This document shows, in pieces, positions 27,056-48,600 of a stretch of 64,000 bases of DNA. Location: contig CAWDRG010000006.1 in the NCBI GenBank assembly GCA_963804645.1, positions 60,540 to 124,539 of the forward strand. Direction: 5' to 3'. Origin of the DNA: an uncultured Bacillota bacterium (GTDB lineage Bacteria; Sysuimicrobiota; Sysuimicrobiia; Sysuimicrobiales; Segetimicrobiaceae). Below the pieces are notes generated by a model. That model searched no databases, was not told the origin of the DNA, and saw only the letters and a program-made list of their open reading frames with translations. Both the position numbers and the translations under genes were made by a program. The stretch's first letter is position 1; each line of letters begins with the position of its first letter.

Positions 27056-27132
27056 GCCCTCGTAGCTCAATTCGGCAGAGCACCTCACTTGTAATGAGGT
27101 GGTTACCGGTTCAAGTCCGGTCGAGGGCTCCA
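27056..27132 (+). tRNA. tRNA-Thr(UGU)
   Basis: Acceptor GCCCTCG/CGAGGGC, anticodon arm CCTCA-CTTGTAA-TGAGG, T-loop TTCAAGT, encoded CCA. Confidence 0.97.
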
Positions 27133-27440
27133 GTCACGTCCTCCAGGCTGCAGCCGAGTGCGCCGATGCAGGCTGTCGCGGGCTGCGGCACGTTCGTGGA
27201 GCCGGAGCCAGTAGGACCCGACGTGCTAGGGACGGACGTTGACCGTGACACGCCTCGGGCGCGTGGTGCACGTCGTGGCGACCCAAAGGCTCAGCATCGC
27301 GCGCGGTCGTCGCGACCGTGGTACGCAGGTAGTGAGAGACGTGACCGTTGCCGTGTCGGCGCTCACAAACGATGACGAGTTGTGCGCGCTGCGCGGCCGG
27401 ATCAGCCGGCCGCGCAGCGAGATCGAAGGAGACGGTCAAC

Positions 27441-30400
27441 ATGGCGTTCGTGGCCTGGCACAACCAAACCCTGACCGACCACCTCGGCCTTACGAAGCAA
27501 TACGAGGCCCAGGGTTACGGCTTCATCTCGCTGAGCGTCTATGGATCAACATCGTCGCCGTACTATGCCGCCGTGATGGTGCAACCATCGCCGGCCGCGC
27601 AGCATCACTATCCCGCCGTACCGGTGAATCAGTGGCAGCAGCTGTTCAATCAGGAAGCCGGACAAGGCTATGGGCCGACGATGGTCGCCGCCACCGGCTC
27701 GGCGGTGAGCCCACTGTACGCTGCAGTCTTCGAACCGCAAGACCCAATTCCGCTGACGATCAACGGCATCGGCCTGCCCATCCAAGGCTGGCAGGCGCAG
27801 ACACTCAACAACAACGGAAAGACCGGCGGCCCGTCCGCCGCGGGCGGCCTCTTCGTCAGCGTCTACAACGATCAGCAGCACTTTGCGTATCTCGACGGGA
27901 GCGGCAACATCCAGGATGCGTGGTACAGCGGCGACGAGTGGCAGCTCCAGCAGATCAATAACGGCGGAAAGACCAAAGGGCCGGCCGCTGCCGGCAGTCT
28001 CTTCGTCAGCGTCTACAACAATCAGCAGCATTTCACCTACGTCGATACCGGGGGCAACATTCACGACGCCTGGTACGGTAACGGCGGCTGGCAGATCCAG
28101 CAGCTCAACAACGGCGGAACGGTCGATGGCCCGGCCGCCGTCGGCGGTCTCTTCGTCAGCGTCTACAACGACCAGCAACACTTCACCTATCTCGACGGCC
28201 TCGGCAACATCCAGGACGCCTGGTACGGCAACGACGGCTGGCACACCCAGCGGCTCAACAACGGCCACGGCGGACAAACCGACGGCCCGGACGCGGTCGG
28301 CGGCCTCTTCGTCAGCGTCTACAATGATCAGCAGCACTTCACTTACCTCGATGACGGCGATAACCTCCAGGACATTTGGTATGGCAGCGACGGCTGGCAC
28401 GTCCAGCGGCTTAACAACGGCCACGGCGGCAAGACCGACGGCCCGGCCGCGGCCGGCGGTCCGTTCGTCAGTGTCTACAACGACCAGCAGCACTTTGCGT
28501 ATCTCGACGGACTCGGTAACCTCCAGGACATCTGGTACGGCAACGACGGCTGGCACGTCCAGCAGCTCAACAACGGGCACGGCGGCAAGACCGACGGCCC
28601 GGCCGCGGTCGGCGGCCCGTTCGTCTGCGTGTATGACGATCAGCAGCACTTCGCCTACCTCGACGGCCAGGGCAACCTCCAGGACGCCTGGTACGGTAAC
28701 GGAGGCTGGCACGTCCAGCAGCTCAACAACGGCCACGGCGGCAAGACCGACGCCCCGGCCGCGGTCGGCGGCCCATTCGTCTGCGTGTATGGCGATCAGC
28801 AGCACTTCGCCTACCTCGACGGCGGCGGTAACGTCCAGGACGTCTGGTACAGCACGTACGTCCAGACCCTTGCGGTACTGAATGCGCTGGCGAAGAGCCA
28901 GGGGCTGATCCTGCGGTGGGCCGCGTCGTATGGTGATTCGATGGGTCGGGCCTTTGTCGCGATCTGGATCCCCAATTCCGGCCAGACACTTTGGAATAAC
29001 GACGGGGTCTCCGATAGCGCCAGCGGCTATCAGGCCCGCTTTGACGCGGAGGCCTCCGGGTGGTGCCGACCCGCGTTCGTCACCCTGAATACGAATTTGG
29101 AATATCTCTCAATCTTCGTGGATAACCAGATCGGTCCGTTGTGGGCGAACCACGAACTGACATCGGCCCAGTACCAGTCCGCGTCCGACACGTTGGTGCA
29201 ACAAGGCTTTTTCCCCATCTGCGTACAGGCCGCCGGACCGGATCCGGATTTCGCGACGTTTTCCGCGATCTTCGCGAAGAGCCAGCAGGTCGTCGGGAAG
29301 CAGTTCAGCGCGACGGGGCCGGTGGCCAATGCCCAGATCGACGCGGTCATCGCACCGTTGATGCAGACCTATGGCGTACGTCATGCCGCACTGGCCATCG
29401 TGCACGACCGGCAGCTCGTGTATGCGCGGGCGTACACGCTGGCCGAGCCCGACTGGCCGGTCGCGCAGCCGACCACCTGCTTCCGCCTGGCGAGCGTGTC
29501 CAAGGTGCCGACCGCCGTGGCCATTTATCAACTGATCCAGGCGGGGACGCTCAAGCTGGGGGACTCGCTCCAGGGCATTCTGCAGCTCACGACACCCTCC
29601 GGCGGACCGCCCGTGGATTTACGGTTCAACCAAATTACCATCCAACAGCTGCTCGAACACAAGAGCGGACTGATTCCCGACGGGCCCACTTCCGGCGCGT
29701 TCGATGATGGTGTGGCTGTGGCGAAAGCGTTTCCGACGGCGACGCTGCCCGTGAGCGCCCCGATGACGGACTCGTACATTGCCAGCCTTCGCCTCCAGAG
29801 CAACCCGGGCGCCACGCAAGTGTACAACAACTGCGGCTACTATCTGTTGGCGCGTGTCGTCGCAAAGCTGCGCGGTCAAAGCCGTCCGATCGACGCGTAC
29901 CAGCAGTATTTGTTCAATCCGCTGTCGATCACGCGCATCCGCCGCGCGGTGAGCTTGGTCGCCGACCAGCCGCCGGACGAAGCGCGGTACCAGGACTACG
30001 ATCTCATCGTGGATGCGAGTCAAATGTCCGAGCCACAACCGCTGGTCCCCGACATGTACGGCGACCTCCAACTCGAGATCATGGAAGGGTCGGGCGGGCT
30101 GACCGGGGCCGTTCCCGACGTGGCGCGGCTGATCGCGATCCTCATTTCGCAGCAGGACAATCCCGCCAGCACGCGGGCGACGCTGGTGAATATGCTGTCG
30201 GCTGGAGCGGCGCTGAGCACCGCTGGCTTCGCGCGCGCGGGGTATGGGTTTGACTTCGTCAGCAGCTTGGGCGGCGGCCAGTTCGACGCCCAGAAAGGCG
30301 GCTTGTGGGACAGCTCGTCCAGCATCCTATCACTCAACGGGGAGTGGGGATTTACGATGCTGTGGGGTAGTGGACGGCCTGGTCAACTCCCGAACCAGCC

Positions 30401-30497
30401 GTGGGCGTCAAATTTCCCCGCGGTCATGAACATCGCTACGAGTACCAACTGGGGCTCCGACGATCTCTTCCCGCAATTCGGCATGCCGTCGCTGTGA
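27441..30497 (+). CDS. serine hydrolase (beta-lactamase fold) with polyglycine-hydrolase-like repeats and an inserted 7-repeat propeller
   Basis: RBS AAGGAG; FRLASVSK (SxxK), YNN (YxN); seven 50-52 aa repeats. Confidence 0.8.
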   Translation: MAFVAWHNQTLTDHLGLTKQYEAQGYGFISLSVYGSTSSPYYAAVMVQPSPAAQHHYPAVPVNQWQQLFNQEAGQGYGPTMVAATGSAVSPLYAAVFEPQDPIPLTINGIGLPIQGWQAQTLNNNGKTGGPSAAGGLFVSVYNDQQHFAYLDGSGNIQDAWYSGDEWQLQQINNGGKTKGPAAAGSLFVSVYNNQQHFTYVDTGGNIHDAWYGNGGWQIQQLNNGGTVDGPAAVGGLFVSVYNDQQHFTYLDGLGNIQDAWYGNDGWHTQRLNNGHGGQTDGPDAVGGLFVSVYNDQQHFTYLDDGDNLQDIWYGSDGWHVQRLNNGHGGKTDGPAAAGGPFVSVYNDQQHFAYLDGLGNLQDIWYGNDGWHVQQLNNGHGGKTDGPAAVGGPFVCVYDDQQHFAYLDGQGNLQDAWYGNGGWHVQQLNNGHGGKTDAPAAVGGPFVCVYGDQQHFAYLDGGGNVQDVWYSTYVQTLAVLNALAKSQGLILRWAASYGDSMGRAFVAIWIPNSGQTLWNNDGVSDSASGYQARFDAEASGWCRPAFVTLNTNLEYLSIFVDNQIGPLWANHELTSAQYQSASDTLVQQGFFPICVQAAGPDPDFATFSAIFAKSQQVVGKQFSATGPVANAQIDAVIAPLMQTYGVRHAALAIVHDRQLVYARAYTLAEPDWPVAQPTTCFRLASVSKVPTAVAIYQLIQAGTLKLGDSLQGILQLTTPSGGPPVDLRFNQITIQQLLEHKSGLIPDGPTSGAFDDGVAVAKAFPTATLPVSAPMTDSYIASLRLQSNPGATQVYNNCGYYLLARVVAKLRGQSRPIDAYQQYLFNPLSITRIRRAVSLVADQPPDEARYQDYDLIVDASQMSEPQPLVPDMYGDLQLEIMEGSGGLTGAVPDVARLIAILISQQDNPASTRATLVNMLSAGAALSTAGFARAGYGFDFVSSLGGGQFDAQKGGLWDSSSSILSLNGEWGFTMLWGSGRPGQLPNQPWASNFPAVMNIATSTNWGSDDLFPQFGMPSL
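27789..28853 (+). repeat. seven intragenic tandem repeats of 150-156 bp
   Basis: W..Q.LNN..G.T.GP.A.GG.FV.VY.DQQHF.YLD..GN.QD.WY repeated 7 times. Confidence 0.92.
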
Positions 30498-30570
30498 CGG
30501 CGGCGCGGCCCGTGGGCGCGGCGCGCCGTTCCGCAAGGCGCGCTGATAGACTCCCGATGGCTCGCCGTGG

Positions 30571-30648
30571 ACCCTCGCAGCCTAGTTCGACCGGACATCT
30601 CACTTGTAATGAGGGTGGTTACCGGTTCAAGTCCGGTCGAGGGCTCCA
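30571..30648 (+). repeat. tRNA-Thr copy 2: full-length pseudo-tRNA
   Basis: 3' 49 nt identical except one inserted G; 5' 28 nt 18/28 identical. Confidence 0.9.
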
Positions 30649-30941
30649 GATTTTGCTAGGGGTTGCGGTCGTCTGCGTGATCATCGGGGAGATACTGCGC
30701 GCGCGAGTCGCCGACGGTCGTGATTTTGAGAAGGACCGCATGCGCGAGCGGCAGATACACTCGCCGGCGGTCGAGTTCGACAGGCGCGGCGGCCTCAAGG
30801 GAGACGAAGACGAGGGCCGCTGAACGGTGAGCGGCGGAGCGGAAACCACTCGCCAGAACGACCGCATCGCGCAGGTGGGCGTGCACACGCCCAGGAACTG
30901 GGCAGAACCAGCGCTCACGGCTCGACATGGAGGAGACGGCC

Positions 30942-32204
30942 ATGAAGCGACGCGTGTTCGCGCTCGTCCTCGGCATCCTCGTCGCAGGGTTGCTGGCGGG
31001 ACCCAGGCCCGCGACGGGAGACACCGCCGACGCTGGCTTGGTGCTCGCGGCGTTGAACGTCTTGGAGCAGCGGTACGCGAAGCCCGTCCAGCCGGTGGCG
31101 TTGTTAAACGCCGCAATTGAATCTCTTGGACAAGCGGGCAATGTGGACCTCACGGCCATTCCCGATGGTACGCTCGAGGCACAGGCACAGGGGGCGTTCC
31201 GCCAAGACTTCGCCAAAGCTGTGCAGACGGGCGCGGCGAAGGAGGAGGACCTCGCCTATCAAGCCACGCGGGCGATGCTGGCGTCGCTTCATGACAGCCA
31301 CACCCTCTACATTGATCCGGCGCACTGGGCGGCCCGGCAGGTTCAGGTAGGCGGGAAGCCCGGTTTTGTCGGCATAGGATTCATCAGCGTGTCCATCAAG
31401 GACGACGCAGGCCAGTCCGTGCTGTATGCTGCGGTAGTATTTCCTGGCGCGCCCGCGGCCGCAGCAGGTCTCTAGGTGCTCGACCAGTTCACCGGAGGCG
31501 CGCCTGCCGCAGGCCCCGCCGGATCGACCGTTACATTTACCGTGCAGCGCAAGGGGCAGCCGGTCACTCTCACGGCGACGAGGCAAGCCATCCAAACGCC
31601 TATCGTTGTTGCGGTACCGATGGTCCGTCCCGGGATTGCGTACATTAACTTCCTGGGGTTCGCCCAGGGTGCCAATGACGCGGTCCGGACCGCGTTGAAG
31701 ACAGCCCAGGCCCAGGGTCCGCTTCGCGGCGTGATTCTTGACCTGCGACAAAATGGCGGAGGTCAAATTGACGAGTTGGAGGGCATCGCCGGAGCGCTGC
31801 TGCCCCCGCGGACGCTCCTTGCGCATACGGTCAGCCGACAGCAGGGATCGTCTGAGTTTCTGGTGACCGGGGCACCGCTTCTGCCTCAAACTCCGCTTGT
31901 CGTCCTGACGAGTGGGCGCAGCGAGTCAGCCGCTGAAATACTGAGCCTTGCGCTCCACGACGCGCATCGAGCGACCCTGATTGGTGAGAAGACGGCCGGT
32001 GCGTATCAGAACAACAACGTGGTCCCGCTGCCCGCCGGGGGGATGTCCGTCACCGTGCGTGAGATCTCCGGCCCTCAATATGAGCAAGTGGAGGGGATCG
32101 GGATCACGCCTGACCAGGTAGTCCCGCTGACCGTCGACGACGTGTTGAACGGGACGGATAGTCAGCTCGATGCGGCGCTCAAAGCACTCGGCGCCGGGAA
32201 CTAG
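30942..32204 (+). pseudogene. S41 carboxyl-terminal peptidase with an in-frame TAG at 31473-31475 and a shortened PDZ domain
   Basis: ILDLRQNGGG, SESAAEI, GEKTAG; colinear with the intact paralog at 54692. Confidence 0.8.
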
Positions 32205-32397
32205 GAGATGCGCCCTAAACGGTATCCCTTGCCGGTGGGTAAGCCACGGGAACTTGCGATTCCTTTGCAATTGCGCGGAGCCGGGATCTGAGGGATTGGG
32301 CCGTGGTAGGAAAGGAAGTCGAAGGCGGACAGCCTGTTGAAATAGTGCTCAAAGAAGCTGAGACGTGCGAAGCATCGAACTGCAAAGGGAGTAGGTT

Positions 32398-33505
<1,108 letters not shown>

Positions 33506-33567
33506 TCAGCTTTGTTGGGTGGCAGATGGAACCCTGGCCAGTGTGACCGACTCAAGACTGCCAGAAT

Positions 33568-33616
33568 CTCACTGGTAATGAGGTGGTTACCGGTTCAAGT
33601 CCGGTCGAGGGCGCCA
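33568..33616 (+). repeat. tRNA-Thr copy 4 (3' part)
   Basis: 47/49 identical; anticodon reads GGT, discriminator G. Confidence 0.93.
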
Positions 33617-33877
33617 GATCGTACTAGGGGTGCGGTTCTCCCTTCCGCCACGCGGTGCTCGAGATGGAGGCGATTGGATTCCAACTCGCTCGTGGGGCGT
33701 CAGCCCGTCGCTCCCCCGGCGGGCGCGGCGCTCGGCCGTGGCGGGCCATACGCGACGCGTCTGTCTGCTTGTTCTGGCGACCCTCGTTTCCTGGCGCACG
33801 AGGAGAGATCATCGCTGAGCCCGGTGCGACGCAGTCATCTCCCCGCTGTCTCCGTCCCTCGGGGTGTCCGAGCGATA

Positions 33878-34831
33878 CTAGCGTTCAAGCGAGATCTCCA
33901 GCCGGAACGTCGTCGACGTGTCTCCCACGGGGACATTCGGGATGGCGAGCACCAACGTTTTCGTACCCACGGGTACCGGATCGAACGCGATCTGCCCGGT
34001 CTGTGACGACTTGCCGGGGACGGCGTCCGGCAGTTGAGTCTGCATGAACCGCACGTTGTAGGTGTGGCTCAGGTCATCGGTGAGCGTGGCAGCGGACGCC
34101 GCCAGCACGAGGTTGACGGGCGCATCGTTGCTGTTGTCGGCGGTGATTCGCACGGTGGTGTAGTCCTTCTCGAACGTCACTTCGGATATACGAAGCGTCA
34201 GTCCGTTTTCGGACGCTTCGGCGTTTGCCGCGAGGCGCGTTCCCGACTCCTGAGTGGGCAACTTCGCCATCGCCGCGACCATGTCGTCGGGGAGGGCGAG
34301 CCTCCACACGGCTCCGTCTCTGACGGCCACGAACGTCATGAGATTTTCGGCGACGGCGTGTCCACCGATCGGCATTGGGGCACAATACGTTGCGGTCGCC
34401 AAGCACGCAACGGTGACCAGCGTCGTCAGGATCGAGAATCCGGCGTTTTCTGTGGTCGTTGTCGTGACGTCTGCGGTGACGACGGCCTGATCCTGTGTCT
34501 CATTGTAGGCGGGCTCGCCGATCGTGTAGGTGATCGTTCTGGAGAATCCGACCCGTGTGCCTTGCGATCCAACCTGTTTCCAGTACGCAATGAATTGATC
34601 TGCAGCGACCCGCACCCGCGTGCGGTTGAGCAGATTCTCGTCGTAGAAACTCCGCAGCACGCCGTCCGCAGGCGGCTGTCCCCTCTCCGCGGGGACGGCG
34701 ATCGTGTTGAGAAAGAGCGCGACGAGGTCTTGCGGGGCGGCGGTGCCGGACGACGACTGGGCCGAGCCCGGCGTCGCCAATGACAGACTCAGCACCGTGA
34801 CAGTTGCCGCGAGCGCTACGAACTTCACCAT
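33878..34831 (-). CDS. secreted hypothetical protein with a C-terminal DUF4352-like Ig fold
   Basis: Signal peptide MVKFVALAATV..SA; RBS GGAGGG; C-terminal V.PGKSSQTGQIAF. Confidence 0.65.
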   Translation of the reverse strand: MVKFVALAATVTVLSLSLATPGSAQSSSGTAAPQDLVALFLNTIAVPAERGQPPADGVLRSFYDENLLNRTRVRVAADQFIAYWKQVGSQGTRVGFSRTITYTIGEPAYNETQDQAVVTADVTTTTTENAGFSILTTLVTVACLATATYCAPMPIGGHAVAENLMTFVAVRDGAVWRLALPDDMVAAMAKLPTQESGTRLAANAEASENGLTLRISEVTFEKDYTTVRITADNSNDAPVNLVLAASAATLTDDLSHTYNVRFMQTQLPDAVPGKSSQTGQIAFDPVPVGTKTLVLAIPNVPVGDTSTTFRLEISLER

Positions 34832-35368
34832 ATGCCCCCCTCCATTCTGGGTGAACGCGCTAGTAGACCTGGATCCAGAAGCACAGGATTCGCTCCACGC
34901 CGTCCTCAGAGGTGCGATCCCCGACGATGCCCCTTGCGGGGCTGCCACCCGTACTCGCCCACAAGACATCTCGCATGGCCACCACACCCCTGGCTCGCGG
35001 GCTGACCCGAACCTCGAGTGGGCCCTTGCCCCCGTACGCAGTCTTCCGATCTCCGCATCGCATCCGCTCATATCATGCACGACGCGTAGGTTGTCCGAAT
35101 CGGTCGAAGGGCCCAGGGAACGGGGGTGTGGCGCGGATAAGGGGCTGAAACCAGTCTGGCGCGCTCGGCTCGCTTTACACGTTCTGAGAAGACTGTCTCC
35201 TCAGAAGGCCGAGGCGTGTTGCGCGTTGTGAACTTCAGCGGCGGCACGTCCTCACTCCTGGTGTCCATCGTGCCGCAGGACTCGTTACGGCAGCCCCAAA
35301 GATACGTTCGCAGGTCATCAGCGGTTACTCGCGAACCCGCAAATGGCATAGGCTAGTGAGCGTGCCGC

Positions 35369-35417
35369 CCCACTTGTAATGAGGGGGTTACCGGTTCAAG
35401 TCCGGCCGAGGGCTCCA
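35369..35417 (+). repeat. tRNA-Thr copy 5 (3' part)
   Basis: 46/49 identical. Confidence 0.93.
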
Positions 35418-35668
35418 GATTTTGCGTGGGTTGGGGTTAGTTCGGTCCCCTCGTTCGTTGTTCTGATGCCACTCGATCGTCGCCTCATTCCCCAAATCTC
35501 ATACGCGTCAAGGTCCCGTACGCGAAGAGCCAGATGGACTGTTTCAACCGAAGGTGTTCAAACACAGATCATGGAAATCCCGGGTGTTACGTGCACGGGG
35601 GAGGGCCGGTCATTCCGGACGCGGGATGGATCTCGCGTTTCGGACAGGCACACGAGGAGGGATGGTCC

Positions 35669-37280
35669 ATGGCAACGCGCGAGGGCACGCAACCGAGACG
35701 GGCGACACGCCGCGCATTCCTCAAAACGGTCACCGCGGCCGGCGTCGGCGCGGCCGCGTCCAGGTGGTACGCGGTCGCGGGATCGCGTGAAGATTCCGCG
35801 GTGCTCGCGGCGACACCGCTCCGGCGAGGCGGGACGCTCAAGATCGCCGAGATCGGCGAGCCGCTGACCCTGGACGCCCCCGCCACGACAGCGACGCTGA
35901 CGGCGGTGATCACGCTGCCGATCTTCGAGGGGCTGTTCGCGTTCGACGCGGGGTGGCGCATCCGGCCGGACCTGGCGGCGGGGTACTCGGTCAGCAAGGA
36001 CGGTCTCATGTACACGATCACCCTGCGCAGCAACGTGTCGTTCCACAACGGCAAGATGCTCACGGCCGACGACGTGGTGGCGTCCGTGAACCGCTGGGGC
36101 AAGGTGAACCCCCAGGCCGCGGCGCCCTACGGCGCGGTGGACACGGTTCAGGCGGCTGCGAGCGACACCGTGGTGATCAAGATGAAGACGCCGTTTGCGC
36201 CGTTCCTCGGGTTTCTGGCGCTCGCGGGCGCGTGCGGGATCATGCCGAAGGAGGTCATCGACGGGATCGGCCCCGGAGGGCTCAAGCAGTACGTCGGCAC
36301 GGGGCCCTACAAGTTCGTGGAGTGGGCGCCGGACCGCTACGTGCACTTGACGCGGTTCGATCAGTACGCCGCGCGCACCGACCCCGCCAGCCTGTTCGCC
36401 GGGCGGAAGGAGGCGCTCGCGGACGATATCTTCTACTATCCGGTGACGCAGGTCGCCACGCGGGTCGCCGGGGTGCAGAGCGGCGACTACGACATCGCCG
36501 ACGGGATCAACCAGGACGCGTACGTGCCGCTGAAGGCCGACCCCCGCGTGACGGTCGGACTCCTCCCCGGGTATTACCTCATCTTCTTCCTGAACAAGAA
36601 GCAGGGCCTCATGACGAACCAGAAGCTGCGCCAGGCGGTGGAGGTCGCGCTCGACATGCAGCCGATTATGCAGGCGACCTTCGGCGACCCGCAGTTGTAC
36701 AGCCTCGACGCGAGCCTGTATCCTAAAGGCACGCCGTGGTACACGACCGCCGGCGCGACACTGGTACAACGTCCACAACATGGACCAGGCGAAGGCCCTC
36801 GCGAGGGAGGCCGGGTACTCTGGGCAGACCATCCGGTGGCTCACGACCCAGGACTACGACTACATGTTCAAGAGCACGGTGGTCGCATCGACGCAGCTCC
36901 AGCAGGCCGGGTTCAAGGTGGACCTGCAGGTCCTGGACTGGGCGACGGTCCTGGATCGGCGCACCAAGCCGACCGAATGGGAGATATTTGTGACGTCGGG
37001 CGTCTTCGTGCCGGACCCCTCGCTGCTCACGCTCTTCAGCTCGACCTACCCGGGGTGGTGGGACACGCCTGAGAAGAACGCGCTGTACGCGGAATTCAAC
37101 GCGGAGGCGAACCAGGGGAAGCGCGTCCAGGAGTGGGCTAAGCTCCAGGCGATGATGTACGAGGAGGCGCCGTCGATCCGTCCCGGCAGCTTCAACAACC
37201 TGATCATCTCGCGGAAGGGCCTGGCGGGCTTCACGCCGTCGTACGTCATCATTCCGTGGAACGTCCAGGCGGCGCGGTGA
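35669..37280 (+). pseudogene. ABC transporter substrate-binding protein family 5 with Tat signal, frameshift near 36760
   Basis: TRRAFLK; EPLTLD, FHNGKMLTADDV, GTGPYKF; continues as WYNVHNMDQAKAL in the next frame. Confidence 0.8.
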
Positions 37281-37456
37281 TCGGACGGTCGGGCCGCACG
37301 TGATGACGGATCGGTGACACGCCCGGCGGGAACGGTCGTCGGGAGCCGAGAACGCGTCGGCCACCGACGGGGCGGGTGTGCGGGTCGATGCCACTCATGA
37401 ATTGAGACGGCCTAGAAGACTCACTAGGTGTGCGGCCAGGCGGCGAACGGCGCTGG

Positions 37457-38842
37457 CTACGGGTGCCGGTCGATCGTGAAGGGTCGTGCCTTGAAGAGCC
37501 TCGGGATGCCCCCGTTGCATCCCTCCATGTAGAACGCGTAGCCGTGCACGGACGTGTGTCCGGCCGGAGCGGCGGCGGACATGAACGACGGGTACCACCC
37601 GTTGAACGCCGCGCCACCCCCGCTCTTCGGCCCGCAGCTGTCGACGCCGGACCCCGTTCCCTTCAGATACACCGGCCCCAGCGTGCCCGGAATCATGACG
37701 GGCGCGCTCCAATCCTCCAGCGCCAGGCTGGTCGCCGTCGAGTAAAACCAGGCCGCGGCAACCTGCTGGTAGGTCGAATTCAACGAGATGCACGTGAACG
37801 TCATGACGTACAGCTTGAGTGGGTCGTTGTACGTGATCTGGCCCTGGACTTGGAACCCGGACTGGAACCCGGGGCATCCGCCGAGCGGCGGGGTGGACGG
37901 CGAGATGACGGCGGTCTCCAGGCCCGCGATGCCCGGCTGCGTGAACCCTCCGTGATACCACTTCATGAAGGTGAGTGTGTTATTCCCGTTGAGCAGGGCG
38001 CGGGCGACGCGGACCTTGCCGTCTCCCCTGGGATTGGTGACGCCGCCCGGTCCCTGCAGGCCGGCCGGGCCGGCGTAGTACGAGTACGCGACATAGACGT
38101 AGGTGCCGCCGCTCGTGTTGACATCGTCAACGAACGCGCTCGGGATCCCGTCGCCCATGGCTTGGGTCAGCGGCTGCGTGGCCGGTTCGGGCACCGGGAC
38201 CTTGAGGACGGGATACCGCGTAGCGCTGCCGAACTCGTCGTCGACCGGCGCCGGCCACGTTTTCCCAAAATTCGATGATCGAACGAGCCCGACGGTGACG
38301 TAGAAGGGGAATCCATACGTGGCACCGGCGCAGTGGTTTTCGGCCTCGTACAGCATGAGGAGGTTGCCCGGCGGCAGCGTCGGATCGCGCAGCACTGATC
38401 CGGGCGCCGCGTAGTTGAAGTCGAACGTGGGGTCAAAGGTCGTGTTGCACTTCGTGAACGGGTTGAGGGAGAACAGCACCTCCTTCGTCCCGTAGCCGGC
38501 GGCGAACAGCAGCGTCCACACGCTGCTCGCGGCAGGCGTCGATTGCAGCACGACCGCGCCGGTGGACGTGGCCTGCGTGGTCCGGCTGGCCGCGAAGAAG
38601 ACGTACTCCGAGTTCGAGTCGAGCGCGCCCGGCGGGAAGATCGTCGTATGTTCGTCGGCCAGGGTGTCGAGGCCGGGTGGGTGAGCCACGATGATCTCGG
38701 GTCCGACCGTGAAGGCGATGCCGGCCGCGGGCGTGGGGCTCGAGAACCCGTCGGTGAGCGCGTAGGCAGCGATGGCCGCCGCCGCCATGAGCACGCTCAG
38801 GATCCGTGTGACGCTCAGACGTCCCCGTGTGAGATGACGCAC
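37457..38842 (-). CDS. secreted/anchored hypothetical protein, Asp-box glycosidase-like propeller
   Basis: RBS AAGGAGG + GTG; hydrophobic N-terminus; YEAENH, SSNFGKTW; paralog at 43668-45057. Confidence 0.7.
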   Translation of the reverse strand: MRHLTRGRLSVTRILSVLMAAAAIAAYALTDGFSSPTPAAGIAFTVGPEIIVAHPPGLDTLADEHTTIFPPGALDSNSEYVFFAASRTTQATSTGAVVLQSTPAASSVWTLLFAAGYGTKEVLFSLNPFTKCNTTFDPTFDFNYAAPGSVLRDPTLPPGNLLMLYEAENHCAGATYGFPFYVTVGLVRSSNFGKTWPAPVDDEFGSATRYPVLKVPVPEPATQPLTQAMGDGIPSAFVDDVNTSGGTYVYVAYSYYAGPAGLQGPGGVTNPRGDGKVRVARALLNGNNTLTFMKWYHGGFTQPGIAGLETAVISPSTPPLGGCPGFQSGFQVQGQITYNDPLKLYVMTFTCISLNSTYQQVAAAWFYSTATSLALEDWSAPVMIPGTLGPVYLKGTGSGVDSCGPKSGGGAAFNGWYPSFMSAAAPAGHTSVHGYAFYMEGCNGGIPRLFKARPFTIDRHP

Positions 38843-38983
38843 CGCACTTGCCTCCTTGTGACGGGTTGTCGGCCCCGCTTCCGTGGGCTTCTCGTCCGCT
38901 CGATTGACCGTCGCACCGCCGCGATCCTGCCGCGGCGCCGTGGCCCGCCGAAACCGGCTCTGCTTGACGGGTCGCCGGGCAGA

Positions 38984-39060
38984 GGCCTCGCAGCTCAATG
39001 CGGTCAAGCGCCTCACGTGTAACGGGGTGGGTACCGCTTCAAGTTCGGTCGAGGGCTCCA
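38984..39060 (+). repeat. tRNA-Thr copy 6: full-length 77-nt pseudo-tRNA
   Basis: 64/77 identical, ungapped. Confidence 0.9.
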
Positions 39061-39268
39061 GATTGTACGTGATTGCTCGGGGGGCCGACATCGATGGCCC
39101 GTCGGTCGGTTCGTCTCGCAATTCGTTACGCGCCTGCGTGAGCGGGGGATGCTGAGGGCAGGGGCGGTCGCGACTTCCGTCGAACCGACAGGCAACTGCG
39201 ACAGTGCTGGCGGCCACCAATTCCGGGACGTATTCGCGGTCAAGGCGTGCTTGGCGAGGTAGCCGCGC

Positions 39269-41635
39269 GTGACGGCACGACGAAAGGCCGCAACTCACAA
39301 CAACCTGCCCGTGCAGCTCACCAGCTTCGTCGGGAGAGAGCGCGAAAAGGCGGAGATCAAGCGGCTGCTTGCGGCCACCCGGCTCGTCACCCTGACGGGG
39401 TCGGGCGGCGCGGGGAAGACTCGCCTCGCCATGGAGGCGGGGCGGGAGATGATCGACCAATTCCCCGACGGCGTATGGGTCGCGGAACTCGCCCCGCTGT
39501 CGGATCCGGCCCTCGTCCCCAAAGTGGTGGCTGCGGCTGCGGGCCTCCGGGACGAGTCCGGACGGCCCGTCCTGGACGCTCTGGCGGGGCATCTCCGCGG
39601 GAAACGCGTGCTCCTCATCCTCGACAACTGCGAGCATCTGGTCGAGGCGTGCGCGCGCCTCGTGGATCTGTTACTGCGCTCGTGCCCGCAGTTGCGGATT
39701 CTCGCCACCAGCCGGGAGCCTCTCGGAAACGCGGGTGAGACCACGTTTCGGGTCCCGTCACTCTCCCTGCCCGAGCCCGGCGAGGTGCTCGCCCTCGAGC
39801 GCCTCCGCGACTATGAAGCCCCACTGCTGTTTGTGCAGCGCGCCGAGGCCGTCTCGCCACACTTCGCGATCACGCACCGCAGCGCCCCTGCCCTCGCGGA
39901 GGTGTGCCGACGGCTGGATGGGATCCCACTCGCGATCGAACTCGCGGCCGCCAGAGTCAAGGGACTGACGGTCGGGCAGATTGCGGCGCGGCTCGACGAT
40001 CGGTTCCGGCTGCTCGTCGGTGGCAACCGCATGGCGCTGCCGAGGCAGCAAACGCTGCTCGCGACGATGGACTGGAGTTACCAGCTGCTCTCGGAACCGG
40101 AGCGTGTGCTGCTGCGGCGTCTGTCGGTGTTCGCCGGCGGCTTCTCGTTGGAGGCGGCGGAGGCGGTGAGCGCCGGGGGCATCATCGAGTCTCCCCACAT
40201 CCTCGACATGCTGCTCCAGTTGGTCGACAAATCCTTAGTCGTCGCTGACGATCGAGGAGACGAGGCGCGCTATCGGATGCTGGAGACGGTCCGGCGGTAC
40301 GGGCGGGATCGTCTGCAGGAAGCGGGGGAGGCCGCGGGGGCGCAGCGGCGGCACCGTGACTGGTACCTCGCGCTGGCCGAACAAGCAGATCCGCGGTTAC
40401 GAGGGCCTGAACAGGCGAGCTGGTTGGGACGGTTAGCGCTTGACCACGATAACTTTCGGGCGGCGCTTGAGTGGAGTCGGGCTGACGACGCCGGCGCCGA
40501 GGCCGCGCTGCGGCTTGCGACCGCGCTGTGGTGGTTTAGTTTCGTGCGTGGTCACTGGAGCGAGGCGAGAACGCTGCTCGAGGCCACGCTGATCCGGGCG
40601 CACGAGGCGCCCCGGCGCCTCGTGCCCAAGGCCCTCCACGCCGCAACGTTTTTCGCGCTGCGACAGGGTGATCTCGATCGTGCGACGGCGCTCGGGGAGC
40701 AGGGACTCGAACTCTGTCGCGAACTGGGCGATCGGGAGAACAGCGTCTGGCTCCTGACATGGCTCGGTCTCGTCGGGCTCCGGCGCGGACAGTACGAGGC
40801 GGCGGCGCGCCTCCTTGAACAAGGCGTCACGCTGTCGCGGGAACTACGGAACGATTGGTTCCTGAGCTTGGTCCTGGCCCAACTGGGAATCCTCGCACGC
40901 GGTGCCGGCGCATCTCAGCGCGCGGTCGCGCTGCATACCCAGTGCCTGTCGCTTGCGAAAGGAACGGGAGATCCACTGATGATCGCCTATCAGCTTCGTA
41001 ACCTTGGCGTCGACAGCCTCACCGATCGAGCGCCCGCGCAGGCGGCCGAGTACTACTCGGAGGCCCTGCGTTTGTGCCGGGAACTTGGGGATCGATGGGT
41101 CTCTGAGGGATGTCTTGAAGGTCTCGCGGCCGTCGCCAGCGCCCGCGGAGATCACCACCGGGCGGCCCGACTCTTTGGCGCCGGCGAGGCATTGCGAGCC
41201 CTGACAGGCGATTCCCGGTCGTTGGTCGGCGATCACTCGTATGACCACCAGTTGGCCGCGACCCGGGCGGCCCTCGGCGACACCGAGTTCAGCGCGGCGT
41301 GGGCGACGGGGGAAGCGATGACATTCGATGATGCGATCGACTACGCGCTGGCGTCACCCGATGCGTCGGCGGCCCAGGAGGCGGTCGGGAAGCCGGACCG
41401 GGGACGGGGTGGTGCCCCCGCGGCGCACGCGGATCCGCTCACCCCGCGCGAACGCGAAGTCGCCGCGCTGGTGGCCGACGGCGTGTCCAACCGCGGGATC
41501 GCCTCCCGGTTGTTCATTACGGAGCGCACGGCGCAGACGCACGTCCAGCACATCCTCGATAAATTGGGGTTCACCTCGCGGACGCAGATCGCAGTGTGGA
41601 CTGCCCAGCGTGGCCTCGTACCGCCGACGAGCTGA
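39269..41635 (+). CDS. STAND ATPase-TPR-LuxR transcriptional regulator
   Basis: NLP..TSFVGRE, GSGGAGKT, LDNCEH, LDGIPLAIELAA; C-terminal LTPREREVA HTH. Confidence 0.92.
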   Translation: MTARRKAATHNNLPVQLTSFVGREREKAEIKRLLAATRLVTLTGSGGAGKTRLAMEAGREMIDQFPDGVWVAELAPLSDPALVPKVVAAAAGLRDESGRPVLDALAGHLRGKRVLLILDNCEHLVEACARLVDLLLRSCPQLRILATSREPLGNAGETTFRVPSLSLPEPGEVLALERLRDYEAPLLFVQRAEAVSPHFAITHRSAPALAEVCRRLDGIPLAIELAAARVKGLTVGQIAARLDDRFRLLVGGNRMALPRQQTLLATMDWSYQLLSEPERVLLRRLSVFAGGFSLEAAEAVSAGGIIESPHILDMLLQLVDKSLVVADDRGDEARYRMLETVRRYGRDRLQEAGEAAGAQRRHRDWYLALAEQADPRLRGPEQASWLGRLALDHDNFRAALEWSRADDAGAEAALRLATALWWFSFVRGHWSEARTLLEATLIRAHEAPRRLVPKALHAATFFALRQGDLDRATALGEQGLELCRELGDRENSVWLLTWLGLVGLRRGQYEAAARLLEQGVTLSRELRNDWFLSLVLAQLGILARGAGASQRAVALHTQCLSLAKGTGDPLMIAYQLRNLGVDSLTDRAPAQAAEYYSEALRLCRELGDRWVSEGCLEGLAAVASARGDHHRAARLFGAGEALRALTGDSRSLVGDHSYDHQLAATRAALGDTEFSAAWATGEAMTFDDAIDYALASPDASAAQEAVGKPDRGRGGAPAAHADPLTPREREVAALVADGVSNRGIASRLFITERTAQTHVQHILDKLGFTSRTQIAVWTAQRGLVPPTS

Positions 41636-41877
41636 TCTCCCACGCGTGTCGCCGAGCCACGGTGCGTGCGACGCCGGGGTCCCTGTGCGGGACCGCCGGC
41701 ACAGGAGGTGTTGGCGGTCCCTTGCGCCCGGCATACGTACTCGTGTCATGTGAAAGATACGTATCGCCGTACCGAATTCGCACGATGGCAGCGGGGATCC
41801 GCCGGCGCACACTCAGGGCACGAGGAGCGCGCACTGCGATGGGCCACTCTGCGCTTGCCGTGAGGGGAGGGAGCTCC

Positions 41878-42414
41878 ATGCCATCGTGTCCGAATTGTGG
41901 TGCCCAGCTTGCCTCCGAGGCCGCAATCTGTGAGGCGTGTGAAGCCAGACGCAGGTCGTCCCGCACGGCCCCGCCCAGCGCTTCGGCGCTCGGGATCGTC
42001 CATTCGTGGTCTACCGCCGCGCCGCCGCTGCAAAAGCTGACGCTCGTCGGGGGCGCGCTGGCCGTGATCGGTTCGTTCCTCCCGTTCTACGCGGTGAACC
42101 TGCCAGAGGGCATGGGGTCCGCGGCATCGATGTCATTTCTGAACACAGGATTTCCTGGTGTGCTCACACTGGTGGCCGCCGTGGCGCTGGCTCTGATCGC
42201 CTTCATGCCCGCGCCGTCACGCCAGGTGACGCTCGCGGGCTTTGGGATCGCGACGCTGGTGCTCGGGATGTTCGTCTACGCGTTCACCGGCGCGGGGCTC
42301 GAAGGGGCGAATCCCGCCGCGGCCGGGCTCGTCAGCCACGGGATTGGTGCCTACGTGCTTGGGATCGGCGCTCTCCTCCTGGAGTACGCCTACGTTCAGC
42401 AGGTCGCGAAATAG
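41878..42414 (+). CDS. zinc-ribbon membrane protein
   Basis: MPSCPNCG..ICEAC followed by about four TM helices; RBS GGAGG. Confidence 0.7.
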   Translation: MPSCPNCGAQLASEAAICEACEARRRSSRTAPPSASALGIVHSWSTAAPPLQKLTLVGGALAVIGSFLPFYAVNLPEGMGSAASMSFLNTGFPGVLTLVAAVALALIAFMPAPSRQVTLAGFGIATLVLGMFVYAFTGAGLEGANPAAAGLVSHGIGAYVLGIGALLLEYAYVQQVAK

Positions 42415-42509
42415 GCCGCAACGGCCTGGCACAGCCGCACGAGACGATTGATATACTCATCCGGTACGCAGGACGGTGCGCTGGCACCGTCGAGAGGGGG
42501 AGTTGGCAG

Positions 42510-42863
42510 ATGAGACGCTTTCTCGCGGGTGTGATCACGGGGGTCGTCGTGGGGGTCATTTCCATCGGCTCGATGCCGTCGGCACGGGCCGACGTCGGGT
42601 CGTTCTTCATGAGCGTCTCGGACTTGTATGGCGAGAACGCCAGTTTTCAGCGAGGGTATGTTGCTGGCGTGTACGATGCGGTCCAAGTCCTTGCGCCCAT
42701 CGCCGGGCAGGGGAGCGCCCTGTATGGTGTCGCAGATTGCCTGGACAGGCAGGGCGACACGATCTCGCAATTCATCATCTATGCGGACAACGCGCTGAAA
42801 CGAGCTCCGTCGCAACGCAATGCCGCAGCCGACCCGATCATGGCGGCGTGCGTACGACGCTAA
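42510..42863 (+). CDS. small secreted hypothetical protein
   Basis: Signal peptide MRRFLAGV..ARA; RBS GAGGGGG. Confidence 0.65.
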   Translation: MRRFLAGVITGVVVGVISIGSMPSARADVGSFFMSVSDLYGENASFQRGYVAGVYDAVQVLAPIAGQGSALYGVADCLDRQGDTISQFIIYADNALKRAPSQRNAAADPIMAACVRR

Positions 42864-42882
42864 ACGAATCGCCGGGCCGGCC

Positions 42883-43425
42883 ATGATGGGACTGCTACAG
42901 GTCGAGCCGTTACCGAGATACCAGCCGGAGATCGGGCGCGCGTTCTGGGCGCTCGAGGCGGCGCGCCGCCGCACGCTCAACTTGGTCGAGGGCATGGACG
43001 ACGTGACGCTCGACTGGGAGGGGCCGGACCGCCGAGAGAACGCCATCGCGTCGCTCCTGTACCACATCGCCTTCACAGAGATGTGGTGGCTGTTTCAGGG
43101 CATCTTGCAGCGCGACTTCCCGCCTTCGGTCGATGCCGGCGCTCAGTATCGGAGTCGCCAGGGCAGATTGACGCGTGTGCTCGGTGTCCCGATGGCGGAC
43201 CATCTGGCCTGTCTGCATCAGAGCCGCGAGTTTCTGCGGGAGGCGTGTCGGCCGATGTCGCTCGCAGAATGGCGCCGTGCCCGTCGCCCTCCCCACCGGC
43301 AGGACTGCATGGTCACCCCGGAATGGATCATCTTTCACCTCGTGGAACACGAAGCCGGTCACGCGTTTCAGATCAGCGCCCTGAGGGCGCGAGCGACGCG
43401 ATTCTTTGCGTCCCGGACGAGATGA
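42883..43425 (+). CDS. DinB family protein
   Basis: IASLLYHIA..E..W; HLVEHEAGH..QI. Confidence 0.85.
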   Translation: MMGLLQVEPLPRYQPEIGRAFWALEAARRRTLNLVEGMDDVTLDWEGPDRRENAIASLLYHIAFTEMWWLFQGILQRDFPPSVDAGAQYRSRQGRLTRVLGVPMADHLACLHQSREFLREACRPMSLAEWRRARRPPHRQDCMVTPEWIIFHLVEHEAGHAFQISALRARATRFFASRTR

Positions 43426-43667
43426 GATCGACCTGGAGAGGCCCGCTGGTGAGGTTCGAGTGCGGCGCGCCGCGGGGTACCGCGTGCAATAGTTGACGGC
43501 AATAATTGAACGGAACCCGTGGTGATCGGAGTCAGAAGTGCTGAGGCACGTCGTGCGACAGGCGCGGGTCCTCACGACGTGTCTCGGATGCCCGCCGCCT
43601 GCTCCGTCCCCGTGTTTTGTATGGACGTCCTCGAACTCAACGATGCTGGAGGACGGCGAGAGGCGCG

Positions 43668-45057
43668 CTACCGGTTTCGGTCGATCTCGAAGGGTCGTGC
43701 CTTGAAGAGCCGCGGGATGCCCCCGTCGCATCCGTCCATGAAGAACGCGTAGCCGTACTTCGACGTGTGGCCAGCCGCCGTGCCGGTGGACATGAACGAT
43801 GGGTACCACCCGTTGTACGCCGAGCCGCCTCCGCTCTGCGGCCCACAGCTGTCGACGCCGGCCGTCTGTCCCTTCTGATGCACCGGAGCAAGCGTGCCCG
43901 GAATCCTGTGGGGCGTGCTCCCAATCCTCCAGCGCCAGGCTGGTCGCCGTCGCGTAATACCAGGCCGCGGCGACCTGCTGGCCGCTCGAAGTCAGTGAGA
44001 TGCACACGAACGTCATGACGTACCGCTTGAGCGGTTCGTTGTAGCTGATCTGGCTTTGCAGCTGGGCCCCGGATTGAAACCCGGGGCATCCGCCGAGCGG
44101 CGGGGTGGTCGGGGAGACGGCCGCGGTGTCCAGGCCCCCGATGCCCGGCTGCGTGAATCCGCCCTGATACCACTTCATGAAGGTCAGGGTGTTGTTCCCG
44201 TTCAGCAGGGCGCGGGCGACGCGGACCTTGCCGTCGCCCCTCGGATCGGTGACGCCGCCCGGCCCCTGCAGGCCGACCGGGCCGGCCGCGTAGAGGTACG
44301 TGACGTAGACGTAGGTCCCGCCGCTCGTGCTGACGTCGTCGACGAAGGCGCTCGGGATGGCATCTCCCATGCCCTGCGTCAGCGGCTGCGTGGTCGGTTG
44401 GGGGACGGGGACCTTGAGGACGGGGTATCGGGTCGAGTTGCCGAGCTCGCCGTCGACCGGCGCCGGCCACGTCTTCCCGTAGTCCGACGACCGCACGAAC
44501 CCGATCGTGGCGTAGAAGGGGAACTCGTACGTGGCGCCGGCGCAGTGGTTTTCGGCCTCGTACAGCATGAGGAGGTTGCCCCGCGGCAGCGTCGGGTCGC
44601 GCAGCACTGATCCGGGCGCCGCGTAGTTGAGGTCGAACGTGGGGTCATAGGTCGAGTTGCACTTGGTGAACGGGTTGAGGGAGAACAGCACCTCCTTCGT
44701 CCCGTAGCCGTCGGCGAACCGCAGCGGGTTCCAGATGACGTTCGGGGCGGTGGATGATTGCAGCACCACCGCGCCGGTCGACGTGGCCTGCGTGGTCCGA
44801 CTGGCCGCGAAGAAGACGAACTCCGAGTTCGAGTCGAGCGCGTGCGGCGGGAAGATCGTCGTGTGCTCGTCGGCCAGTGTGTCGAGGCCGTGCGGGTGCC
44901 CAAGGATCAGTTCGCGTCCGACCGTGAAGGCGATCCCGGCCGCGGGCGTGGGGCTCGACACCCCGTTGGTGAGCGCGTACGCAGAGATGGCCGCGGCTGC
45001 CATGAGCACGATCAGGATCCAACTGAAGCTGAGACGTCTCCCCGTGAGATGACGCAT
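43668..45057 (-). pseudogene. frameshifted paralog of 37457-38842
   Basis: Colinear protein; one extra G after the EDW codons near 43921 shifts the frame; C-terminus in ORF 43668-43883. Confidence 0.75.
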
Positions 45058-45173
45058 CGCACTCACCTCGCTCGTGATGGATCGTCGGCCGCACGTCCGT
45101 GAAGCGCGCTGCTCATCCGCTTGATTGACCGTGCGGCCTCCGCGATCCTCTCGCGGCGCGCGTCCCGTTGTCA

Positions 45174-45206
45174 GAGGGGACCGGGTCCAGTCGGGTCGAG
45201 GGCGCA
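45174..45206 (+). repeat. tRNA-Thr copy 7 (heavily degenerate T-arm/acceptor remnant)
   Basis: accgggtccagtcgggtcgagggc is 21/24 identical; same position relative to the paralogous gene as copy 6. Confidence 0.7.
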
Positions 45207-45266
45207 GACTGTGCTGGGATTCGGGGTCGCCGGCCTGGCCGACCACCGGGCACTCCCGGTCCGGCC

Positions 45267-45603: not shown

Positions 45604-45837
45604 CCTGAATCCGGCGGGGAATGTCCAGATTTAGAGCCAGCCGATCTGCTCCGAGCTTGCCAATGGCGCACCGGCGGGCCAATGGACCACGAAATTTGCT
45701 CTGCCAGGATAATTACACTGGAGTGAAGATATCCTGAAAGGGCACAATTTCTCCCTCGGATCGCACCGGCCCAAGTAATTCGCGGCTTCCGCGACAGGCG
45801 TGCTCTTCAAAGTTGCACAGATGCCGCCGGATTCAGG
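45604..45837. mobile_element. 234-bp MITE
   Basis: 14-bp perfect TIR CCTGAATCCGGCGG; 5-bp TSD TAATA at 45599-45603 and 45838-45842. Confidence 0.8.
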
Positions 45838-45893
45838 TAATACGTGGGTTGCCACCAGGACGGAGGCCTATCCACATACGGGGGTGCCGGCTC

Positions 45894-48418: not shown

Positions 48419-48434
48419 GCAGACCCCCTTGGGA

Positions 48435-48600
48435 CCCAGCCGGGCACCACAACACCTACGCATCCGCGCTCGCAGCGCAACCGGGTCAGTCGCAGGGGCG
48501 GCCAGATATCAGATCGGACTCGTGGTCCATATTCGCGACGGCCTGCCCGTTGCTGGTGGTCCCTTGTGCCCCATGGCCCGGCTCCGCTACGATAAGTCGG
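48435..48600 (-). ncRNA. bridge RNA of the nested IS110 (boundaries approximate)
   Basis: Target loop CGAATAT-hairpin-TCTGATAT; donor loop ACCCGGT-hairpin-ATGCGTA. Confidence 0.75.

Follow-up and report, generated by a model that had tools for sequence, protein, structure and literature searches.

Two kinds of described system resemble most closely the locus that we report here. In the three-step model of accretion proposed for integrative and conjugative elements (ICEs), integrative and mobilizable elements (IMEs) and cis-mobilizable elements (CIMEs), an element integrates, decays to a CIME, and is followed by a new integration at the same target, according to the part of that account drawn on here (PMC5704250). 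In the tycheposons, again in the portion of the source used, nothing but partial tRNAs stands between the elements, older elements are displaced inward by newer ones, and the integrases are fragmented (bioRxiv 10.1101/2020.12.28.424599). Here, we describe an array of units behind a tRNA-Thr(UGU) gene in a 64,000-nucleotide (nt) stretch of contig CAWDRG010000006.1 (assembly GCA_963804645.1), which we refer to as the window. We consider it probable, though well short of certain, that this array grew as integrative elements accumulated in tandem at tRNA-Thr(UGU) and then lost their mobility genes, leaving CIME-like remnants.

The array begins at an intact tRNA-Thr gene, and a repeat search of the window revealed six direct copies of the 3' part of this gene downstream (c1 to c6; Table 1). 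The start-to-start spacings are 3516, 1798, 1170, 1801, 3643 and 6147 nt, and the copies split approximately 18 kb of low-GC DNA (60-69% G+C in the array vs 69-79% in the upstream flank) into units of 3.5, 1.8, 1.2, 1.8, 3.6 and 6.1 kb. When up to two mismatches are allowed, a 15-mer of the anticodon arm occurs five times, compared with 0.02 occurrences expected from shuffled sequence. By blastn, the copies start at tRNA positions 29-31, in the 5' strand of the anticodon stem. Copies c2, c3, c4 and, as far as it is readable, c6 start sharply at the anticodon stem and are preceded by unrelated sequence. Copies c1 and c5 are full-length pseudo-tRNAs preceded by approximately 35-45 nt of promoter-like sequence; the 3' part of c1 (30599-30649) equals the tRNA except for one inserted G (98% of 50 positions by blastn), and c1 with its surroundings aligns at 82% identity with the complete tRNA-Thr locus (140 nt, -34 to +28) of a relative of the same genus, designated G004. 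Identity to the tRNA declines with distance, with c1 and c2 (~98-100%) not strictly ordered and c6 lowest. Copy c6 was not recovered by blastn with the tRNA as the query; it is seen only as a 26-nt copy that is 88% identical to c3, the reference copy in the repeat search, and it is placed relative to its neighboring gene as c5 is. A preliminary description of this DNA, made from its letters alone, had reported six further direct copies, these unit sizes, and a single gene in each of the first four units, and it had read the copies as attachment (att)-type duplications of a tRNA 3' end. ARAGORN, the repeat search, the shuffles and Pfam agree with it on each of these points, as do the starting positions of the copies within the tRNA.

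Comparison with relatives indicates that the array is an insertion at this site. The gene order MoaA, tRNA-Thr(tgt), then tRNA-Tyr and tRNA-Gly is kept, with synteny in the loci of 13 relatives, and among these 13 tRNA-Thr loci fragments of the tRNA are found in that of G004 only. Four genomes of the same genus include the downstream flank, and three of them (G001, G002 and G003) lack the array, while the fourth, G004, carries other cargo. The distance from tRNA-Thr to tRNA-Tyr is 14.3 kb in G002, which has no fragment, as against 35.8 kb in the window. The core of G004 is approximately 84-87% identical to the window's genome at the nucleotide level, and the approximately 64 kb at its site include three clear fragments, with units 21.6, 0.9 and 13.7 kb long. 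The cargo of G004 is purely metabolic, with one rve remnant, and the contig that carries its island has no match to PF00589 (tyrosine recombinase). The two arrays share only their most distal gene, which fits the expectation that the oldest unit lies farthest from the tRNA; the second gene of unit 5 has its homolog at the distal end of the G004 island (85% nucleotide identity). The locus thus shows what tandem tRNA islands show, namely an intact, regenerated tRNA at one end, co-oriented 3' copies downstream, an insert that is missing from the same site in relatives, and a deviating G+C content.

We searched the window and the rest of its genome for a recombinase that could account for the array. 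PF00589 has no match on the window's contig, even at E<=10, and PF00239 (serine recombinase) has none on that contig and four elsewhere in the genome. When the genome's own integrases and the full-length or partial family frames of nine relatives were used as tblastn queries against the island in the window, no match was better than E 0.067. The genome is a draft of 22 contigs that is 97% complete, and it holds no intact member of the integrase family described below, only three remnants. The units are therefore as the preliminary description had them, without an integrase, and they resemble CIMEs in being flanked by attL- and attR-type sites and devoid of integration and transfer genes. The array borders upstream on MoaA and an alpha/beta hydrolase, with no IntI, attI or Pc beside it, and no integron integrase, attI or attC was found, no attC model having been run. 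Two IS110-family transposase genes lie beyond c6. IS110 elements are not known to duplicate 49-nt targets, and we rejected these transposases as the recombinase of the array: the family (PF01548) has 23 matches scattered across the genome, and the pair in the window is repeated on contig C19.

Independent contigs confirm the junctions. A metagenome scan returned 10 loci, three of which (L050, L053 and L056) belong to the array's own lineage, and these are colinear with the window across c1 (L053, 99%), c5 (L050, 97.6%) and c4 (L056, 94.7%). In addition, one contig from the peat data, which consist of short assembled contigs from four peat-metagenome runs at approximately 3-10x that break at repeats, bridges c5 without differences. 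Because these contigs cross the junctions colinearly, the repeats are not an assembly artefact. Of the other loci, L049, L051 and L055 come from another genus and represent its native tRNA-Thr locus, which carries a BNR-like gene and lacks an integrase, and L052, L054, L057 and L058 were discarded as chance matches that lack the anticodon arm. The joints listed in the peat-run contigs match over 21-44 letters on whichever side is shorter; none falls at an att site, which makes them uninformative on excision or circles.

One of these contigs also reveals a polymorphism. L056, which is approximately 95% identical to the window, carries an extra unit of 1133 bp exactly at c4, with one gene for a small secreted protein and a conserved non-coding stretch ahead of its repeat, the P arm, of the type seen at c2. 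The left repeat of this unit has the GGTGG variant of the tRNA followed by new downstream sequence, and the right repeat has the GGGGG variant of the window's c4 followed by c4's own downstream sequence. This distribution fits a crossover to the left of the variant position, in or near the anticodon loop. The difference can be read in two ways, as an insertion at an internal repeat or as a loss in the window's lineage by recombination between the flanking repeats.

The sequences that follow the repeats point to the kind of element that was inserted. Directly after c1 and c4 stands a motif of approximately 28 nt, GATTTTGC.AGGGGTTGCGGTCGTCTGC, which we refer to as the P' motif, and weaker forms of it follow c3, c5 and c6. 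The motif is also present after the intact tRNA-Thr of G004 and after two of its repeats (f2 and f3), and it is not found after the tRNA-Thr of island-free relatives. On the opposite strand the motif forms the end of an open frame, which in G004 continues ...LGHSTPTFTLAIYNHV...ADDRKSLQN. This G004 frame, beside the tRNA-Thr, is the C-terminus of a tyrosine integrase, surviving as a remnant of 60-76 amino acids (aa; tblastn E 4e-6 to 1e-5). Judged by its translation, the P' motif behind the repeats probably represents the 3'-terminal stretch of a tyrosine-integrase gene convergent with the tRNA. Within the window, only the last ~10 integrase codons survive, after c1 and c4. Reverse-strand translations yield a series of remnant lengths, from none after the window's tRNA and ~10 codons after c1 to ~20 aa at tRNA-Arg(ccg), ~35 aa at tRNA-Ile, ~45 aa at tRNA-Ala(ggc), 60-76 aa at the tRNA-Thr of G004 and ~100 aa at tRNA-Pro(tgg), the last inside a 155-aa open frame. 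All remnants of this series are anchored on the tRNA side, and the one at tRNA-Pro(tgg), in the window's own genome, reaches to within 10 nt of the tRNA. The motif itself is conserved as DNA, with the stop codon falling before, inside or after it depending on the element.

The same integrase family is widespread in the order. With the tRNA-Pro remnant as the query, we obtained matches in 72 of 94 genomes, a tally that takes in the unpublished genomes G030 and G058, and full-length family frames are 380-420 aa long. Among the 11 loci of relatives that the search returned, eight have the 3' end of the integrase gene directly adjoining a tRNA (Pro, His, Val, Ala or Met), and at one locus (L079) a family integrase stands beside tRNA-Thr(tgt). 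Complete elements lie between a tRNA and its fragment at L072 (9.7 kb; integrase, large terminase, AAA_25 and HTH_17) and at L075 (6.8 kb; integrase, two HTH_17 and a 929-aa AAA_25 protein), such that these autonomous relatives combine integrase, HTH_17 and AAA_25 beside tRNAs. The L072 element (G011:C83:6277-16133), at tRNA-Pro(tgg), has no recognizable capsid genes and may be a phage satellite.

On the other side of the units, a P arm of the c2 type, 150-250 nt long, also stands, at 79-88% identity, ahead of one repeat in L056 and two in G004. A search of 23 genomes of the family found this arm in two, the window's genome (G000) and G004. A scan of genome contigs for the P' motif matched only G004's own contig, at two loci and without an autonomous element, and the 45-nt tRNA pattern had no match in viral contigs. 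An autonomous element with these exact arms was found in none of the genome, metagenome and viral contig scans.

The array at tRNA-Thr has counterparts elsewhere in the genome. When all 51 tRNA genes were compared with the genome by blastn, 40 fragments of at least 25 nt were found outside tRNA genes, and 15 tRNA genes have fragments on the same contig, which define 27 units with a median length of 4.0 kb. A tyrosine or serine recombinase match is present in two of these units and absent from the other 25. Gene-less mini-units of 0.4-0.9 kb also exist.

Taken as a history, accretion followed by loss would run as follows. Elements of one family of tRNA-targeting tyrosine integrases would insert successively, with the crossover in or near the anticodon loop. 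Each insertion would rebuild the tRNA from element sequence and push the older unit, together with the displaced 3' part of the tRNA, downstream. The integrase gene of the element would be convergent with the tRNA, its last codons abutting the att core, and this gene and the other mobility genes (in relatives, the excisionase-type HTH_17 and the AAA_25 replication gene) would later be deleted. What would be left in each unit is the selected cargo, with a short integrase tail on one side and a P arm and tRNA fragment on the other. If a deletion took out a fragment, the neighboring units would merge, and this would account for the two and five genes of the older units 5 and 6; whole units could also be lost or gained by recombination between direct repeats. 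We infer that deletions arising in the proximal unit cannot extend into the single-copy tRNA, with the consequence that remnants would shrink towards the tRNA end. We favor this history because of the tail motif, the G004 remnant, the graded, tRNA-anchored series of remnants, and the similar margins of the cargo. These non-coding margins (P' side, 21-305 nt; P side, 94-537 nt) look like the outcome of general trimming and not of special retention of one end.

Several observations weigh against this history. By tblastn and translation, the units in the window keep at most ~10 integrase codons, and unit 1, the youngest, is without an integrase trace though a single inserted base is all that separates c1 from the tRNA. 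The aldo/keto reductase of unit 3, with margins of 21 nt and 94 nt, is unusually neat for random deletion. The extra unit of L056 has neither integrase nor tail motif, and its left repeat shares an unbroken match of 50 nt with the tRNA. The evidence for decay of the cargo is weak, in that an indel of the assembly or of the strain seems to account for one of the three gene defects and perhaps for another. Across three genomes, one P arm is found beside four units, each with a different cargo, and a shared arm of this kind would look like the cis-acting ends of non-autonomous elements. Likewise, because it is conserved at the DNA level with a varying stop position, the P' motif may be a recombination site that integrase-less elements must keep, and not the sign of a lost gene. 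This leads to an alternative in which the units are non-autonomous, cargo-only elements, 'mini-islands' comparable to CIMEs or to miniature inverted-repeat transposable elements, that possess only cis sites (the P arm, the 49-nt core and the ~28-nt P' motif) and are moved in trans by a family integrase from a passing or neighboring autonomous element, with insertion also at internal repeats. This is the idea of the preliminary description without its integron label, and we entertain it as a tentative possibility with the chances against it. It would accommodate the conserved P arm and P' motif around different cargo in the window, G004 and L056, the conservation of the motif as DNA and not as peptide, the compact units of 1.2-1.8 kb with one complete gene each, the gene-less mini-units, the 25 of 27 units in the genome without a recombinase match, and an L056 unit at an internal repeat whose variants are as expected for a crossover in the anticodon-loop region. 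However, in a genome that is 97% complete the family is represented by three remnants and by no intact integrase, no unit recurred in identical form in a second context, erosion accounts for the graded remnants better than a discrete integrase-less class does, and the L056 difference is equally well explained by loss of a unit through its flanking repeats. A broader form of the same idea, in which tRNA genes serve as docking sites for integrase-less, single-gene mini-islands that are moved in trans by the integrases of satellite-like elements and make up an integron-like store over approximately 15 tRNA genes, strikes us as distinctly unlikely.

The full-length copies raise a different alternative, that circular or transferred DNA bearing a copy of a tRNA-Thr locus recombined by homology with the resident tRNA (Campbell-type recombination), without a site-specific recombinase, and so duplicated the whole homologous segment. 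This would suit c1 and c5, which are pseudo-tRNAs complete with promoter-like upstream sequence, the match of c1 to the whole G004 locus over 140 nt, which extends beyond an ordinary att core, and the lack of an integrase trace in unit 1. But a sharp start at the anticodon stem, seen in four of the six repeats, is what site-specific recombination typically produces, integrase-borne elements are indicated by the tail motif and the remnant, and a decayed 5' half is also expected in an attP that is carried by an element, where that half was never under selection. We hold homologous recombination to be very improbable as the source of the array. To an assembly artefact or a chance repeat we give almost no credence: the draft, in 22 contigs, has likely indel errors and short-read contigs break at repeats, yet five matches stand against a shuffle expectation of 0.02, three metagenome contigs and a peat-run contig are colinear over the repeat junctions, and G004 has a homologous array.

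Against this background, the stepwise capture at one tRNA that the preliminary description had proposed holds up well, given the three same-genus relatives without the array, the other cargo in G004 and the extra unit in L056, and its concern that the repeats might be an assembly artefact is settled by the independent contigs across c1, c4 and c5. Its picture of integron-like cassettes that never had an integrase is not supported, in view of the tail motif and the 60-76 aa remnant in G004. Integrase remnants inside the units, which it had named as the mark of ordinary decayed tandem islands, are largely there, although in the window they come to only ~10 codons. It had overlooked the full length of the pseudo-tRNAs c1 and c5 and the two IS110 transposase genes beyond c6.

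The coordinates of the array and the cargo of its units are given in Table 1. Genes inside the island were called from Pfam-supported open reading frames (ORFs), as a simple picker based on G+C content at third codon positions mis-called island genes.

Table 1. Positions of the tRNA-Thr gene, its copies, and the features of the units in the window
Feature	Position	Strand	Basis or remarks
Intact tRNA-Thr(UGU), integration target (attL side)	27056..27132	+	ARAGORN, anticodon tgt; MoaA synteny upstream
Unit 1, youngest	27133..30598	+	One gene; no integrase tail motif after tRNA (reverse-strand translations)
Unit 1 gene, 1019 aa: BTRD1 (polyglycine-hydrolase-like) repeats and beta-lactamase-family serine hydrolase domain	27438-30497	+	Pfam
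Repeat c1, full-length pseudo-tRNA, 5' half decayed	30574..30649	+	Repeat search, blastn
P' motif GATTTTGCTAGGGGTTGCGGTCGTCTGCG, probable fossil of last integrase codons	30650..30678	-	Reads ADDRNP then stop
Unit 2 gene, secreted S41 peptidase	30927..32204	+	Pfam; one in-frame stop at 31473-31475
Conserved non-coding P arm of unit 2	32252..32397	+	Alignment; blastn 79-88% identity
Repeat c2, 49/49 identical to tRNA 3' part (100%)	32398..32447	+	blastn, repeat search
Unit 3 gene, aldo/keto reductase	32469..33473	+	Pfam E 3.9e-75; starts 21 nt past c2, ends 94 nt ahead of c3
Repeat c3, 97.8% of 45 positions vs tRNA	33568..33617	+	blastn, repeat search
Unit 4 gene, secreted protein, 317 aa from start codon ahead of signal peptide	33878..34831	-	No Pfam match
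Repeat c4, 95.7% of 47 positions vs tRNA	35369..35418	+	blastn, repeat search
Unit 5 first gene, family-5 solute-binding protein, two frames	35534..37280	+	Pfam; frameshift near 36759
Unit 5 second gene, secreted, no family match, paralog of 43637-45060	37457..38830	-	Repeat search, Pfam
Repeat c5, full-length pseudo-tRNA, 84% over 75 nt vs tRNA	38986..39061	+	blastn, repeat search
Unit 6 forward genes, span	39269..43425	+	
Unit 6 LuxR/STAND-TPR regulator	39269-41635	+	Pfam
Unit 6 zinc-ribbon membrane protein	41596-42414	+	Pfam
Unit 6 small secreted protein, weak Rap1a-like match	42480-42863	+	Pfam
Unit 6 DinB/MST-family protein	42820-43425	+	Pfam
Unit 6 last gene, paralog of unit 5 secreted protein	43637..45060	-	Frame disturbed near 43920
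Repeat c6, most decayed copy	45180..45207	+	Repeat search only; end approximate (~45207)
IS110-family transposase gene beyond c6	45813-47003	+	Pfam
IS110-family transposase gene beyond c6	47213-48463	-	Pfam

The gene of unit 1 contains seven tandem repeats of 150-156 nt that are 63-79% identical (window 27786-28889) and encode WY/GG-rich modules ahead of the BTRD1 and beta-lactamase-family domains, an unusual architecture for a secreted hydrolase. Over the aldo/keto reductase unit (32503-33836), the summed contig depth is several-fold above that of its neighbors in all four peat runs; this excess may stem from similar genes of other organisms, whose contigs are summed. The gene of unit 4 is also present on L056, at 94.7% identity. 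In units 5 and 6, the peat-run contigs bear on the disturbed frames: one base is left out at 36759 in contigs of four of four runs, with which the frameshift in the solute-binding protein is gone, and one base is left out at 43920 in two of four runs, with which that in the unit 6 paralog is gone. From these alignments, the assembly probably carries indel errors at 36759 and 43920, and we no longer regard pseudogenes as proof of old age, since these frameshifts are missing from four and two of the four runs, respectively. The IS110 pair beyond c6, two different genes on opposite strands, recurs with identical scores at G000:C19:113188-115681.

Some other tRNA loci of the genome have features of their own. 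At tRNA-Val(tac) (G000:C17:309394-312867), a copy of the 5' part of the tRNA (positions 1-58, 98%) lies 3.4 kb upstream, which suggests an element that integrates with opposite polarity. At G000:C9:6376-7591, two tRNA-Arg(cct) genes of 73 and 76 nt, 1.1 kb apart, head a fragment array, and one of them is apparently a displaced copy that is still scored as a tRNA. In the tRNA-Met(cat) array (G000:C15:176605-244729), two hairpin-forming sequence types alternate after the repeats, which points to an element family other than that at tRNA-Thr. Finally, ARAGORN reports a 98-nt 'tRNA-???' with a four-base anticodon (ggcg) at G000:C22:22618-22715, which may be a false positive or a frameshift-suppressor-like tRNA.

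The array shows foreign cargo, including a serine hydrolase, a peptidase, a reductase and regulators, persisting after its vehicle has vanished. Island finders anchored on integrases would miss most such DNA, given that 25 of the 27 tRNA-bounded units in this genome are without a recombinase match. For annotation, it is worth looking downstream of tRNA genes for displaced 3' fragments, and a short conserved motif after a tRNA is interpretable as an integrase gene's fossil end. If units were indeed to move in trans, they would amount to a cassette system built on tRNA att sites.

Among known systems, integron cassette arrays share with this locus compact, mostly single-gene, mostly co-oriented units that end in a repeated recombination site, and one gene here starts 21 nt after the site. 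Unlike integrons, the array lacks IntI, attI and Pc, its repeated site is copied from the target tRNA instead of being an attC hairpin, and the motif behind its repeats would go back to an integrase gene formerly present in each element; the resemblance to integrons is no more than superficial. The parts drawn on here of the work on tRNA and tmRNA islands catalogued by Islander (PMC4383910) and on the ssrA tandems of Dehalococcoides (PMC3146451) describe a regenerated target, a displaced fragment and stacking, as here, but those islands are by definition found through their integrase gene, and the units of this array would be missed. The Prochlorococcus tycheposon islands, as portrayed in the portion of the source used (10.1101/2020.12.28.424599), are likewise tRNA-adjacent, with partial tRNA copies between elements and scattered partial tRNAs, and tycheposons combine a tyrosine recombinase with replication genes and cargo, as do the array's autonomous relatives, a likeness of architecture. 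They differ in phylum and habitat, and here most units have no recombinase match. Tandem ICE/IME accretion with CIMEs, as described for the ICESt1 family of Streptococcus thermophilus in the part consulted (PMC5704250), shares att-flanked units without integration or transfer genes, stacked in tandem at one target with the newest beside the intact target. In contrast to those elements, the array resides in an uncultured high-GC soil or peat bacterium, its autonomous relatives are small integrase/HTH_17/AAA_25 elements, one with a terminase, that do not look conjugative, at least six units stand in a row, several with a single gene, and cis-mobilization is putative here. The array is a large new example of an already known footprint, that of repeated insertion of mobile elements whose insertion genes were later lost.

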